Positions 7,224 to 10,875 of a stretch of DNA of 40,367 bases are shown piece by piece. The translations under genes and the position numbers were made by a program. Position 1 is the stretch's first letter. The number at the start of each line of letters is the position of its first letter. The notes under the pieces are model-generated. The model ran no database searches. It was not told the DNA's origin and saw only the letters and a list, made by a program, of their open reading frames with translations. The stretch is from a virus, in the IMG/VR virus record IMGVR_UViG_3300045988_046182, positions 1 to 40,367 of that record; one strand, given 5' to 3'.

Positions 7224-7273
7224 ATTTTACCTCCTTTACGTTTTTATAGAGTTGTAAGCTCTTAGGATAATTT

Positions 7274-7300
7274 AATTATATCAAATACGTTATAAATTTG
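7274..7300 (-). promoter_or_regulatory. Degenerate copy of the reiterated promoter cassette (TTTACA-18-TATAAT)
   Basis: Minus strand cTTTACAaatttataacgtatttgaTATAATtaaatt. Confidence 0.3.
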
Positions 7301-7310
7301 TAAAGTGCAT

Positions 7311-7376
7311 AAAAAAAGAACACCGTGAAAGGGTGCCCTTTTTGCAAAACACTTTATCGTTTGGAGGTACTTTTAT
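7311..7376 (-). ncRNA. Candidate small RNA: consensus promoter to intrinsic terminator unit of about 65 nt
   Basis: TTGACA(7406-7411)-17-TATAAT(7383-7388), then about 65 nt containing CCUCC, then hairpin CACCGUGAAAGGGUG (7321-7335) plus a U7 run. No ORF or RBS. Confidence 0.35.
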
Positions 7377-7382
7377 ACTTAC

Positions 7383-7411
7383 ATTATAGCAAAAATAGCT
7401 TTACGTGTCAA
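7383..7411 (-). promoter_or_regulatory. Consensus sigma-A promoter TTGACA-17-TATAAT driving the candidate sRNA
   Basis: Perfect hexamers with a 17-nt spacer. Confidence 0.5.
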
Positions 7412-7459
7412 GAATTTTCGTGAGGAGGAAACCTCCTTCACTCTGCCCTTGTAACAAAA

Positions 7460-7850
7460 TAAAAATCTAAGTTACTACATTTACTACAAAAACTACACTA
7501 ATTTCTATATAGCAAATATTTATAAAAAAATATATATATAATTTATTATTATAAATAAACTCTTGAAAATAAATGTAGTAAATGTAGTAAATATATATAA
7601 AGCTAGTGATACCAACGGTTTGAAGGGGTTACAAAAATGTAGTAAAAGTGTAGTAAAAAATGTAGTAAGCCTAAAAATGTAGTAAAACGGTTAATAATAT
7701 ATGAATGAATTTTAACAGTTTATCAATAAGTTTTATTGTTAAAAATGTAGTAAACTACAAAAATGTAACCGCAAAATGTAGTAAAAATGTAGTATTACTA
7801 CATAAAAATGTAGTAACTGAATCCGAAAATGTAGTAATTGAAAATAAAAA
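7460..7850. repeat. Iteron array A: about 12 direct and 3 inverted copies of AAAATGTAGTAA flanking an AT-only stretch
   Basis: Repeats readable at 7471-7497 (inverted), 7573-7590, 7636-7690 and 7743-7840. Spacing is 10-16 bp. The whole ~330-bp block is paralogous to 23510-23850. Confidence 0.85.
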
Positions 7851-7875
7851 AAGACAGTAAAAATACTGCCTTAAT

Positions 7876-9159
7876 TTATTCCCAGTAATCTCTTATAAAT
7901 GGTATTTTGTAACCACGGATTGATTTACCATCAACTTTATATGGTTGGTTAGGTATTCCTCTCCTCATAAGCTCATTAGCAAGTGCTTTCTTTTCTTTTA
8001 TATTGAGCTTTTCAGCTATTTCTGTAAGCTTGTACACTCTCAAGTCGTTACTTTCCCAGTCTACTTTGTCATCTAATATGATTGATATATCTGTTTGAGC
8101 ATTGAATTGTCTATTAATTATTTTTTGTTTCGCTTCTTCCTCTTTGGTCAACCAATCAATACTATAATTAGTCAACCACATATCATATACTGCGCCCCAA
8201 AACTCAAACATATTGAAATTGTCAAACTCTTCTATATTACAAGATTTAACAGGAATTACCCAAAACCTTCTTGAACCTGTTTCATCTTTTAAGAAATCTT
8301 TTTTATTAACATTAGCAATATAACTTGTTAGCCTTGGATATATTTCAGCGACACGACCAAACGGAACTCTATATTCATCAGTTGTATTAGTTAAAAACTG
8401 CTTAATTTTACCTTGGTCAGCTTTTAAAGTTGTATCTAATTCTGCTAACTCAACAAGAATATATTTAGTATTTTGGATCACGCTATCAGTTTTATCAGGG
8501 TCTAAAGATACTCCATCTTTGAACAAGTCATTAAGTGGCATTAATTTACGTGCAAACGTTGATTTACGGCACCCTTGTTCCCCTTGGAGTGTTAATACTC
8601 CGTTAGAACTATAACGGTTTTCTAGCTCATTGTGAGCCATTTTAACAACATTTAGAAGCCATTTATAGAACAAAGTGAAATAATACTCCGCATCTTCTAA
8701 AGCATCATCTTGAAGTGTTAAACACTTTTCAAACACATCAAGCACTATATCGTGATTATCATTTCTGTACTTCTTCAACATATCTACAAAGGGATTTATT
8801 TCTTTTCTATTAGCTATATCAATTAAATATTCGTCGCATACCGCCCTATTAAGATTTAAACCTTCTTTTACTTGTAAATCATATACAAATGTCAGCATTT
8901 CACCTCTTTTTTTAAATTTTCTACCTTCCATTTGTAAAGTTAATTCATGAGTTATCTTATTCATAACTGGATTTATTCCATAATGATTTAACAAATATTC
9001 TAAATTTGCCATTGTTTTTATCGGAACTGTTCCACCATCTTTTAAATATTTAACCTCCGGAAATTGTATAAGAGAAACGTTACTCTTTTTATTTTTAACA
9101 TCATTAATTGAAAAAACTTTTTTAGTGTTTTGCATTTTAATATCCTCCTTATTTACCAT
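7876..9159 (-). CDS. VirE-family primase C-terminal / D5-type helicase replication protein
   Basis: Walker A LQGEQGCRKSTF, with flanking similarity to the VirE (PF05272-type) pattern. Confidence 0.6.
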   Translation of the reverse strand: MVNKEDIKMQNTKKVFSINDVKNKKSNVSLIQFPEVKYLKDGGTVPIKTMANLEYLLNHYGINPVMNKITHELTLQMEGRKFKKRGEMLTFVYDLQVKEGLNLNRAVCDEYLIDIANRKEINPFVDMLKKYRNDNHDIVLDVFEKCLTLQDDALEDAEYYFTLFYKWLLNVVKMAHNELENRYSSNGVLTLQGEQGCRKSTFARKLMPLNDLFKDGVSLDPDKTDSVIQNTKYILVELAELDTTLKADQGKIKQFLTNTTDEYRVPFGRVAEIYPRLTSYIANVNKKDFLKDETGSRRFWVIPVKSCNIEEFDNFNMFEFWGAVYDMWLTNYSIDWLTKEEEAKQKIINRQFNAQTDISIILDDKVDWESNDLRVYKLTEIAEKLNIKEKKALANELMRRGIPNQPYKVDGKSIRGYKIPFIRDYWE

Positions 9160-9277
9160 TAACTATTTCCATTATAGCGATATGAATAGGTTTTTCACCT
9201 CTCCAATTATCAAACGCTTTTTTCTCTTTTTCAGTAAGATAGAATTTAACTTGTTTACTTCTCTTACGATTTTTCAT
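9149..9277 (-). CDS. Small basic protein (42 aa), coupled to the VirE-like gene
   Basis: GAGGTG RBS; stop overlaps the RBS of the next gene. Confidence 0.3.
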   Translation of the reverse strand: MKNRKRSKQVKFYLTEKEKKAFDNWRGEKPIHIAIMEIVNGK

Positions 9278-9342
9278 ATTATCACCTCGCAAGACAATAA
9301 TAACATAGTGAGTACACACTTGTAAAGTATTTTTTTATTTAT

Positions 9343-9401: not shown

Positions 9402-9527
9402 ATGGGTAGATTTATATGTGAAGCTATTCCTTATAATGGATTTAAGGAGAGAATTAAAATATGTAAGGAGCTACAAAAGAAAAGAATGAGATTCAGCATA
9501 GAAGGAAATATTATATTTGTTTATTAG
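9402..9527 (+). CDS. Small plus-strand protein (41 aa), the only convincing plus-strand gene
   Basis: AGGAGG 7 nt upstream of the ATG. Translation: MGRFICEAIPYNGFKERIKICKELQKKRMRFSIEGNIIFVY. Confidence 0.45.
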   Translation: MGRFICEAIPYNGFKERIKICKELQKKRMRFSIEGNIIFVY

Positions 9528-9565
9528 AGGAGGGTTGACCTTCTCTTTTTTTATGCGATTAAAAC

Positions 9566-9593
9566 AAAAAAAAGAAGAGGATTGCTCCCCTTC
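9566..9593. terminator. Bidirectional intrinsic terminator shared by the convergent small genes
   Basis: GAAGAGGAttgcTCCCCTTC stem with A8 on one side and a T run on the other. Confidence 0.45.
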
Positions 9594-9731
9594 CTAAAAT
9601 CCAAACCAATTAGGTAAATTATAAAACCAATCAGCTATTAAAGCTCCTATAAAAGCTATAGCAACGACTAATATTGGTGCTACAACTGTAAAAAACATAT
9701 TTCTTAAAAACTTTTTATAATTCCATTTCAT
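9594..9731 (-). CDS. Small hydrophobic single-TM peptide (45 aa)
   Basis: MKWNYKKFLRNMFFTVVAPILVVAIAFIGALIADWFYNLPNWFGF. GGAGG RBS, and its own consensus promoter. Confidence 0.5.
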   Translation of the reverse strand: MKWNYKKFLRNMFFTVVAPILVVAIAFIGALIADWFYNLPNWFGF

Positions 9732-9763
9732 AATTAATACCTCCAAATATTTACTATATCTAA

Positions 9764-9791
9764 ATTATAACACACTTAATTATATTGTCAA
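9764..9791 (-). promoter_or_regulatory. Promoter cassette copy (TTGACA-16-TATAAT)
   Basis: Minus strand ttgacaatataattaagtgtgttataat. Confidence 0.55.
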
Positions 9792-9800
9792 TAATAAAAT

Positions 9801-9872
9801 AAAAAAAAAGAGAGGAATTTTTCCTCTCGTCTTAGGGGTGAGTATATTTTATCAAAGGAGAATTTCATGTCC
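9801..9872 (-). ncRNA. Candidate small RNA: promoter to terminator unit of about 70 nt
   Basis: Promoter at 9879-9907, then ggacaugaaauucuccuuugauaaaauauacucaccccuaagac, then hairpin GAGAGGAaaaauuCCUCUC (9810-9828) plus a U9 run. CUCCUUU anti-SD motif; no RBS. Confidence 0.35.
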
Positions 9873-9878
9873 AACTAT

Positions 9879-9907
9879 ATTATAGCAAACTTAACTATCG
9901 TTGTCAA
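9879..9907 (-). promoter_or_regulatory. Consensus sigma-A promoter TTGACA-17-TATAAT
   Basis: Minus strand ttgacaacgatagttaagtttgctataat. Confidence 0.5.
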
Positions 9908-10197
9908 TCTTTTAACGTTTGTTCGATTAACTTTTTGTAATCTTCCTTATAATCCATTATAGCGGGTTTGAGTGTTGGTCTTGCGGGTTGTCTGCTCGTT
10001 CCGTTTTCTAAATCACTTTGTTAACATAAAGGCTTTTTATCCTCTATTTCTTATAGTTTCCTATAAGGTCGGCGTACATCACATTCCTAGAAGGAATAAG
10101 GACACTCTTGGGCGTATTATATTCTTTTAAAAAGTTTCAACACCTACGCTCTACGGTGAGCCACATCTTTTAAAATGTGCTTTACCTCGGTATTAGC
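9908..10197 (-). other. 290-bp noncoding segment downstream of the HNH gene with a locally GC-rich core; candidate structured RNA or DNA site
   Basis: No ORF longer than 20 aa on either strand. 9961-10005 (agcgggtttgagtgttggtcttgcgggttgtctgctcgttccg) is far more GC-rich than its surroundings. Confidence 0.3.
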
Positions 10198-10875
10198 TTA
10201 TTGTTTGAATAATTCATCTAGAGTTATATTTTCGTTATTTTTATATCTAGCATGAACCATAGTATATTTTAAGTTGAATAATTCGCACCACTCAATTAAA
10301 CATTTTGTGGTGTTGCCTATTGTTATTAATATATTACTACTTCTGTTTCTAGATTGTGTTTTCATATCTACCCATCGGCAATTATTAGGTTCATAATTTC
10401 CGTTATTGTCTATTCTATCTATAGTCAAGTTTTTAGAATAACCGTTAGAAATAGACCACATATAAAACTTTTCAAAATCAAGCCATTCATCACATATTTT
10501 TATTCCTCTTCCTCCATAATTCGCAAACCTTGTATCGTTCGGATTAAAAATACGTTTTTTCATACCTTGCCAAGTTTTATATATTCTTGTTTTAGATAAG
10601 TTATGAGTAGTTTGATTTAAATTTAATTTATCTTGTTCTTTTTTTAAGCAACCACAACTTTTAATTGAACCATCTTGCAAAGAATCACTTCTAGCTGTTT
10701 TAAAATTTCCACAATCACATATACAATCCCAATAAGTTTTTCTGCTCTTCTTATCACTTAAACCTAGAACTGTTAATCTTCCAAATTTCATGCCAATTAA
10801 ATTTTTAATATTTTTATTCATGTTATCACCTCTCTTTTGTTGTACCACATTCGAGGGGTATTTGTCAATTAACAA
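10198..10875 (-). CDS. HNH endonuclease with N-terminal Cys-rich zinc-binding motif
   Basis: N-terminal FGRLTVLG...WDCICDCGN...SCGC. C-terminal LTIDRIDNNGNYEPNNCRWV HNH motif. Confidence 0.65.
   Translation of the reverse strand: MLIDKYPSNVVQQKRGDNMNKNIKNLIGMKFGRLTVLGLSDKKSRKTYWDCICDCGNFKTARSDSLQDGSIKSCGCLKKEQDKLNLNQTTHNLSKTRIYKTWQGMKKRIFNPNDTRFANYGGRGIKICDEWLDFEKFYMWSISNGYSKNLTIDRIDNNGNYEPNNCRWVDMKTQSRNRSSNILITIGNTTKCLIEWCELFNLKYTMVHARYKNNENITLDELFKQ

Follow-up and report, generated by a model that had tools for sequence, protein, structure and literature searches.

Two experimentally studied systems come closest to the locus described here. The Rep proteins of the Staphylococcus aureus pathogenicity islands (SaPIs) are self-loading initiator-helicases of superfamily 3 (SF3), in which a C-terminal winged helix reads short iterons (Qiao et al., PMC9371898). 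The SaPI origin lies just downstream of rep and consists of two opposed iteron sets with an A+T-rich centre, the primase gene being placed upstream (PMC9371898). In phage SPP1, the two origins, oriL and oriR, have direct repeats and an A+T-rich unwinding element in common, and oriR lies between gene 7 and genes 8–11 (PMC6316719). A proposed model has replication forks stalling where gp38 is bound to oriR, after which theta replication is turned into concatemer synthesis by recombination proteins (PMC3485210, PMC6316719). Here, we analyzed a viral DNA stretch of 40,367 nucleotides (IMG/VR record IMGVR_UViG_3300045988_046182, referred to as the window), in which the cluster of head genes is interrupted at positions 7224–10875 by a block harboring a gene for a VapE-type helicase. 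The core of this block is probably the phage's own VapE helicase together with its cognate iteron array, termed array A, as a counterpart of SPP1 oriR, whereas an intron and small cargo units in the same block are independent of it. This differs from an earlier note on the window, which had suggested a recently inserted mobile cassette or a captured satellite.

The first and the last 55 nt of the window (1–55 and 40313–40367) form an exact direct overlap within the tape-measure gene, and therefore the window represents a complete circular assembly of ~40,312 unique bases. At 95–98% nucleotide identity, 15 GenBank records match it, all from Clostridium perfringens siphophages of the phiCP39-O/phiCP26F group, and the window is the complete, circularly assembled genome of a phage of this type. 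Due to this completeness, the lack of another helicase holds genome-wide: the complete genome contains no other helicase, initiator or integrase, no DnaD-like or DnaB-like protein and no att-like feature. All genes taken as real are located on the minus strand with the exception of one small plus-strand open reading frame (ORF); the genes and transcription units below are on the minus strand unless stated otherwise. A tRNA scan returned no tRNA gene, and a literature search revealed no paper discussing the helicase, origin or intron of these phages.

The VapE/Rep-type SF3 initiator-helicase (7876..9135) comprises 419 amino acids from an ATG at 9135, which is preceded by a good ribosome-binding site within an ORF opening at 9159. 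It had been described as a VirE-type primase/helicase. The helicase part of this description holds, with a Pfam match to VapE-like_dom (PF05272, E 7e-41), but the protein contains the helicase domain only and no primase domain. The sole sequence match in the PDB is 7PDS, SaPI1 Rep1 bound to DNA (phmmer, E 7e-11); the sequence identity to SaPI1 Rep1 is ~16%. A model calculated with AlphaFold (AF2) from 49 homologues, with a predicted local distance difference test score (pLDDT) of 87.5, displays a C-terminal winged helix at residues 365–412 in the order strand-helix-helix-strand-strand. In a Foldseek search, this model matched the six chains of 7PDS best, along its entire length and with template modelling (TM) scores of 0.67–0.69 (E 1e-16), while NrS-1 and the poxvirus D5/E5 helicases follow far behind. 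VapE is thus predicted to be of the SaPI Rep1 kind, with an SF3 ATPase placed between an N-terminal tier and a C-terminal winged helix. Its partner would be the CHC2 zinc-finger (DnaG-type) primase encoded 9 kb away (17872..18840; Pfam Zn_ribbon_DnaG).

Array A (7473..7836), the putative origin, begins 40 nt after the VapE stop codon and contains 12 exact copies of the iteron TACTACAYTT. It is built from one inverted double iteron, an 82-nt spacer with 89% A+T and 11 iterons in opposite orientation. A paralogue, array B (23519..23838), with 9 exact copies is found in the early region. Outside of arrays A and B the motif is absent from the 40 kb, and the observed count was not matched by any shuffle. 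Both arrays align over ~330 nt at roughly 80% identity (80–81% in blastn of array A against the array B site of relatives), share the same layout and have spacers of 89% A+T each. Array B is positioned between a terminator (23868–23846) and a promoter cassette (23411) preceding the Gam-Erf operon, with the recombination genes for a Gam-like protein, Erf, ERCC4 and SSB beside it. The genome yielded no further origin candidate. That the arrays function as origins, that VapE binds the iterons and which role each array plays, we infer from these sequence features.

The likeness to SaPI1 is extensive. It includes the full-length fold match to Rep1 with the predicted C-terminal winged helix, a putative origin immediately 3′ of the helicase gene, a primase partner and 6–12 short iterons, which are arranged in two opposed sets around an A+T-rich centre. 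In contrast to SaPI1, the primase gene is not adjacent to the helicase gene in the phiCP39-O clade, two origin copies are present per genome, and the genome is that of a complete virulent-type phage and not of an integrated island. The earlier comparison with phage-inducible chromosomal islands (PICIs) is therefore fitting with respect to mechanism, since VapE and its origin are of the kind found in the pri-rep-ori replicon of SaPIs and PICIs, but not with respect to capture.

The placement of the block resembles SPP1. Gene 7 of SPP1 (MuF-like) ends at 4728 of the phage record, genes 8–10 come next, and the start of the scaffold gene 11 is at 6914; a 71-nt stretch within gene 38 (oriL) is 83% identical to positions 4878–4948, which confirms the location of oriR. 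In both phages, the order terS-terL-portal-MuF-like is interrupted before the scaffold and capsid genes by an origin segment with morons, which is bracketed by transcription signals and contains an A+T-rich element and repeats, and a second copy of the repeats is present in the early region. A recombination set comparable to that invoked for SPP1 lies next to array B in the clostridial phages. The replication proteins are different. SPP1 uses gp38 (a DnaD-like origin binder), gp39 (a loader) and gp40 (a DnaB-type helicase), whereas VapE/SF3 and the CHC2 primase are found in the window. Furthermore, the late segment of SPP1 encodes no replication protein, in contrast to the helicase gene beside the late array here, oriL of SPP1 is located within gene 38, and the repeat sequences differ. 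Since the initiator system of SPP1 is unrelated, the island of the window is an analogue and not a homologue of the SPP1 segment.

Mechanistically, VapE would be made from its own promoter, bind the iterons via its winged helix, melt the A+T region and load itself, and it would then recruit the CHC2 primase. Array B, which precedes the recombination operon (Gam-Erf-ERCC4-SSB), would be bound by VapE as well. One array would be the start site, and the other one may represent a bound barrier that helps to end circle-to-circle replication in favor of recombination-driven concatemer synthesis, in line with the proposal for oriL and oriR of SPP1.

In the direction of transcription, the head region starts with terS, terL (14304–15701, assigned by profile search), a gene for a DUF3310 protein, portal (12729–14084; SPP1_portal, E 3e-43), an 87-aa ORF, the gene for the MuF-like minor head protein (11166–12386; E 4e-20) and an HK97-gp10-like ORF (10933–11169 in its unspliced form; Pfam HK97-gp10_like). 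This is followed by the HNH gene, ~1 kb of small units, VapE, a repeat-rich gap, a 62-aa ORF, scaffold (6484–7035; E 1e-19) and major capsid (5467–6468; phrog_212, E 1e-67). Approximately 3.9 kb separates portal-MuF from scaffold-capsid. Profile searches hence confirm that the head module is split between MuF and scaffold, as had been stated earlier. The truly intergenic island is shorter and spans 9903–7224, because the HNH gene and a structured segment next to it lie inside the gp10-like gene. Side observations concern the GenBank annotation of this region: VapE is called 'integrase' in several records (EU588980, MZ401006, MH999280), and the scaffold is labelled 'recombination related exonuclease' or 'fibronectin autolysin'. 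Profile searches do not support these labels.

The 15 GenBank records were compared for gene order, and nine relatives were aligned for island composition. All 15 records, as well as a divergent metagenomic relative (L011; VapE 65%), share the interrupted order; the earlier note had named just such a shared order as grounds against a recent insertion. The segment 7218–9537, which comprises the iterons, VapE, a leader ORF and a divergent promoter, is kept in all nine aligned relatives at 96–98% identity. The nearest capsid relative outside of this group, MT835595 (53% identity), shows an uninterrupted order of terL, portal, MuF, scaffold and major capsid gene. As the earlier note stated, a replication gene among head genes is atypical. 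The block interrupts, as a derived state, a head module that was ancestrally contiguous, and the island is an early-type transcription island embedded in a late operon. As its parts vary independently among the relatives, the block is composite and not a single cassette.

A search across 5.8 billion proteins revealed many VapE homologues at 40–66% identity, a number of which are fused to a CHC2 primase domain. In seven contigs (L012–L016, L172 and L174; VapE 44–51%), VapE directly follows the CHC2 primase gene, and the early module has the same content as in the window, namely Gp157/Gam-like, Erf, ERCC4, SSB and a helix-turn-helix (HTH) protein. These relatives are related to the window at the family level, with protein identities of about 45–59%. 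The gap of 270–680 nt after VapE in these seven relatives holds the genome's own iterons. An array is thus found directly 3′ of VapE in eight independent genomes, whatever is located downstream. Two of the contigs, L014 and L016, are collinear with the window genome-wide. Their protein identities to the window are 56–59% for the primase, 48–50% for VapE, 51–54% for portal, 42–45% for MuF, 45–53% for scaffold and 66% for terL. VapE is on par with the core genes, and it would therefore have descended with the phage and moved within its genome. The adjacency of primase and VapE, which is also the arrangement of SaPIs and of the fusion proteins, appears to be the ancestral state. Taken from these sequence comparisons, the placement of VapE points to an intragenomic relocation and not to a foreign acquisition. 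A search for remnants of VapE, both behind the primase gene and at other places in the genome, revealed none.

A second array between MuF/gp10-like and scaffold is present in four of five relatives, with the iterons GTTACCTA in L012, AAGTTACT in L014, AGGTTACC in L016 and TGTAGCAA in L172. It is 76–78% identical to the array following VapE and carries the same genome-specific iteron, so that both arrays co-vary per genome. Since this late array is present in genomes where VapE is located elsewhere, the origin-like site would predate the arrival of the helicase in the head module. The MuF-scaffold origin site thus appears to be ancestral for the family, and the helicase probably moved there within the phiCP39-O clade. 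The metagenomic relative L011 keeps the order of the window, and its scaffold and capsid are 95–97% identical. Its VapE gene, in contrast, has the central ~1.1 kb replaced with sharp boundaries (L011 1420–2673 versus window 9100–8020; 58–81% nucleotide identity), while the C-terminal domain and the iterons are 84–93% and the flanks 92–98% identical. This pattern is as expected if the winged helix and the iterons form a matched pair.

Several observations weigh against this interpretation. L174, which has the same head type, harbors no array before scaffold, and the late array is thus common but not universal. Array B lies upstream of Gam, whereas the early array of the relatives follows the primase; due to this misplacement, at least two rearrangements are needed. 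A comparison of the identity of the C- and N-terminal domains of VapE with iteron similarity across seven genomes gave no clear signal except for the pair of window and L011. Moreover, the iterons of L012 and L016 are both of the GGTWACC type, yet the C-terminal domains of the two proteins are only 52% identical versus 66% for the core. The iterons might therefore be read by a different domain or by a different protein, such as the product of a 42-aa ORF in front of VapE. Finally, no origin signature was seen in the cumulative GC skew, which is uninformative here because all genes are on one strand.

In a different explanation, the arrays are operator- or centromere-like sites for a regulator of the promoters P7411/P7304 and P23411, and VapE is an elongation helicase loaded elsewhere. 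In favor of it, each array is flanked by a terminator and a strong promoter, VapE is preceded by an ORF for a possible small DNA-binding protein, and across genomes there is no simple covariation between the iterons and the C-terminal VapE domain. Nevertheless, opposed iteron sets around an 82-nt spacer with 89% A+T are the classic layout of an origin and the same as that of the experimentally proven origins of SaPIs and SPP1. The recurrence of an array directly 3′ of VapE in the eight independent genomes, together with the genome offering no other origin candidate, also makes an operator function rather unlikely.

The view of the earlier note, that the block is a recently inserted mobile self-replicating cassette of HNH, VirE and origin, or a captured satellite or PICI-like replicon, is very unlikely. 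Certain features do speak for it. VapE is a fold homologue of SaPI1 Rep1 with the origin directly 3′ as in SaPIs, and distant homologues are present in streptococcal satellites and on an 8.2-kb Terrisporobacter plasmid, the latter indicating that the family can drive autonomous replication. Likewise, the island is equipped with promoters and terminators of its own, the helicase core of L011 is bordered by sharp recombination boundaries, and capsid relatives outside of the group possess an uninterrupted head module. However, the helicase region occupies the same place in all 15 GenBank relatives and L011, which speaks against a recent insertion, and the HNH gene varies independently and is part of an intron in a different gene, which speaks against a single cassette. 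In collinear relatives, VapE shows an identity at the level of core genes and is located after the primase, and four relatives have the iteron site between MuF and scaffold without VapE. The complete genome lacks a second helicase, an integrase and an att-like feature, the promoters of the island are of the phage's own type, and in contrast to a phage satellite or PICI, full structural, lysis and recombination modules are present. No free-standing copy of the block was found in searches of phage, plasmid-like and species-representative genomes or of the protein collection. Within the species-representative set (one genome per species), no close VapE was found in C. perfringens, arguing against a resident island. 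In sum, the capture hypothesis is mostly refuted, and the interpretation of the earlier note as a whole is partly supported.

That the arrangement is an assembly artefact, a chimeric contig of phage and non-phage DNA, might be suspected since the window is a circular contig of the de Bruijn type whose ends overlap by 55 nt, but is already refuted by 15 isolates of different provenance (USA, Japan, China and elsewhere), which were sequenced independently and show the same order, so that its probability is negligible.

The HNH gene belongs to a different element. Group I introns with HNH homing endonucleases are known from phages, such as the DNA polymerase introns of the Bacillus phages SPO1 and SP82 and the introns of the Staphylococcus phage Twort. 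In the window, the gp10-like gene, which encodes a head-tail connector, contains a stop after 78 aa compared to 111 aa in intron-less relatives, and its missing C-terminal coding sequence reappears at 10013–9904. Excising 10943–10014 restores a collinear ORF of 111 aa, the same length as the HMD-PC1 allele. Splicing in silico raises the score from 21 to 59 bits for phrog_5 and from 22 to 28.6 bits for Pfam HK97-gp10_like, the latter now covering the full model length. Exon 1 (10944..11169), assigned by Pfam and collinear with the intron-less HMD-PC1 allele, ends in ...CCGU, and exon 2 (9904..10013), assigned by the profile scores of the spliced product, ends with the stop codon TGA (9906–9904). 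Based on exon joining, boundaries and covariation, the 930-nt insert between them (10014..10943) is best read as a group-I-type intron that would be spliced out. It carries the gene of an HNH homing endonuclease (10198..10821; phrog_374, E 2e-80) of 207 aa, for which the start is likely ATG 10821 and not 10875. The 3′ 184 nt of the intron are the 'ORF-free structured segment' of the earlier note, where this segment and the HNH gene had been listed as separate items of the block; both are parts of the intron within the gp10-like gene.

The HNH gene and intron are present in 26F, 39-O, 9O and PMQ04 and absent from HMD-PC1, CPQ4, 17DYC, 13O and XP41-N3. As the earlier note had suggested, the block thus contains a selfish element, the HNH gene, which is sporadic among close relatives; the intron is the sole part of the block that behaves in this way.

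The boundaries were read by eye. P1 is formed by exon CCGU and intron GCGG with a U.G pair at the 5′ splice site, in P10 AUU pairs with AAU, and the intron ends in ...AAAGUG with a terminal G. The last ~145–170 nt share 81–95% identity with the 3′ portion of an intervening sequence of ~250 nt that lacks an ORF and interrupts the tape-measure gene of Staphylococcus phage vB_SpsS-DH5 (L018 3003–3254). In this closest relative of the intron core, P1 (UGGGU/GCCCA) is clearer still and P10 comprises 6 bp. A 23-nt P9 core, CCGACCTTATAGGAAACTATAAG, is exactly present in 72 IMG/VR viral contigs (L019–L090) of 4–236 kb, in many of which the core adjoins other group I introns scored by Rfam. A covariation analysis covering the 3′ half of the intron from P7 to P9.x revealed compensatory changes in 16 of 29 pairs of nested helices and almost none broken (28-sequence alignment). 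Here, P7 covaries (GCGUA/UACGC, GCAUA/UAUGC, GAGUA/UACUC) and aligns with the canonical R/S elements of other copies. The window and Staphylococcus copies score no match on Rfam RF00028, even at E up to 10, whereas a copy sharing the core (L057) scores 76 bits.

As in the introns of SPO1, SP82 and Twort, a conserved gene is interrupted precisely and in frame, the insertion is sporadic among near-identical phages, and a free-standing HNH ORF is located in a peripheral loop. The U.G pair at the 5′ splice site, P10, the terminal G and a covarying P7–P9 core are shared as well. In contrast to these introns, P7 is GCGUA/UACGC and not GACUA/UAGUC, RF00028 is silent on the window copy, and the host gene is the HK97-gp10-like connector.

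The remaining parts of the block are small transcription units. Four perfect (12/12) sigma-70 promoters are present in the block (9907 minus, 9791 minus, 9342 plus and 7411 minus), together with 10 terminator-like hairpins versus 1.4 expected. An 18-nt extended promoter cassette, TTGACAAnATAATTAAGT, followed by TATAAT, occurs genome-wide at eight sites with at most one mismatch (9342, 9774, 17462, 19356, 22623, 23394, 30627 and 38426), which precede early and cargo units. The copies of this cassette noted previously are present in the block, but they are not specific for it. The eight sites may form a single class of promoters under common regulation.

Two similar units flank the island, each with a perfect promoter, a CU-rich transcript of ~70 nt and a terminator. 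Unit 1 (9800..9907), resembling a small RNA (sRNA) of ~70 nt, is conserved in L011; the -35 box of its promoter P9907 overlaps the TGA stop codon of the gp10-like gene, and its terminator (9828–9810) also ends the packaging/portal operon. The sRNA-like unit 2 (7308..7411) has a perfect consensus promoter, the region of which is repeated at 9876–9907, and a terminator. Rfam scans of the block, the 3′ segment of the intron and the Staphylococcus intron gave chance-level matches only and no known sRNA family, and the folding energies of the sRNA-like units are unremarkable (z -1.3) except for the terminators.

Between unit 1 and VapE, a cargo unit (9572..9791) consists of a promoter cassette, an ORF for a 45-aa single-pass membrane peptide (9731–9594; phrog_22191) and a terminator; in 13O, 34O and XP41-N3, a PAPS-reductase gene is found downstream in this slot. 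The plus-strand unit (9342..9546), with promoter cassette, 41-aa ORF (9402–9527; phrog_16552) and terminator, is oriented divergently to the VapE promoter and runs convergently towards the ORF of the membrane peptide, the two terminators lying back to back. As a side observation, this layout recalls convergent toxin/antisense pairs, for which no match was found. Directly upstream of VapE, a weak promoter (10/12) and the 42-aa ORF mentioned above are located (9149..9326; phrog_16621). This ORF has a possible ribbon-helix-helix start with a weak NikA-like match (E 0.01) and is 98% conserved in L011; its origin as a remnant of a relocated primase C-terminus was considered and rejected, as no similarity was found. 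The VapE unit ends with an intrinsic terminator (7851..7872; fold z-score -7.6). For the scaffold-capsid operon, a restart promoter (TTTACA-18-TATAAT) is followed by the 62-aa moron ORF (7223–7035; whole unit 7035..7304), which is present in two of the nine relatives compared, 39-O and HMD-PC1. Searches of the small peptides against Pfam and PHROG returned families of unknown function only. Judging from their distribution, these small promoter-terminator cargo units seem to come and go between strains independently of the helicase-origin core.

The island adjoins a further variable region. Two non-alignable types of the major capsid gene and of the scaffold gene's C-terminal part (5490–6531) exist within the otherwise 95–98% identical group, an SU10-type capsid in the window, HMD-PC1, CPQ4, PMQ04 and CPD1, and a 'P22 coat'-type capsid in 39-O, 26F, 13O, 34O, 9O, 17DYC and XP41-N3. 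As the boundary of this swap adjoins the island, the island is also a mosaic junction.

Other mobile elements were observed in the relatives. In PMQ04 (L003 9671–11185) and CPQ4 (L007 9129–10257), the large terminase is annotated short and lies beside a NUMOD4/HNH homing endonuclease gene, which suggests a second intron or homing-endonuclease insertion missing from the intact 465-aa terL of the window. The related metagenomic phage L015 (6263–7882) has a ThyX (Thy1) gene with an intein, Pfam Intein_splicing being located between two Thy1 halves.

For the C. perfringens phages under development for biocontrol, the annotation is corrected by these results. The 'integrase' or 'P-loop ATPase' of the head module is a predicted replicative initiator-helicase beside a putative origin, and the 'HNH' gene and the truncated 'tail component' would be one intron-split connector gene. 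The intron in turn belongs to a widespread subgroup of phage group I introns (P7 GCGUA/GCAUA, 72 viral contigs) that is missed by RF00028 at the gathering score.

With respect to replication, the peculiarity of SPP1, a late-region origin between gene 7 and gene 11, would recur in clostridial phages with an unrelated replication system. Due to this recurrence and to arrays that co-vary per genome, the role of oriR in the theta-to-sigma transition becomes testable by comparison and in a second experimental system. As a tentative suggestion, a second, initiator-bound origin between MuF and scaffold might be a general design of siphophages with an SPP1-type head, whatever replication machinery they use, and might program the switch from circles to concatemers. 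The phiCP39-O clade would then couple the supply of the initiator and the occupancy of the late origin in cis.

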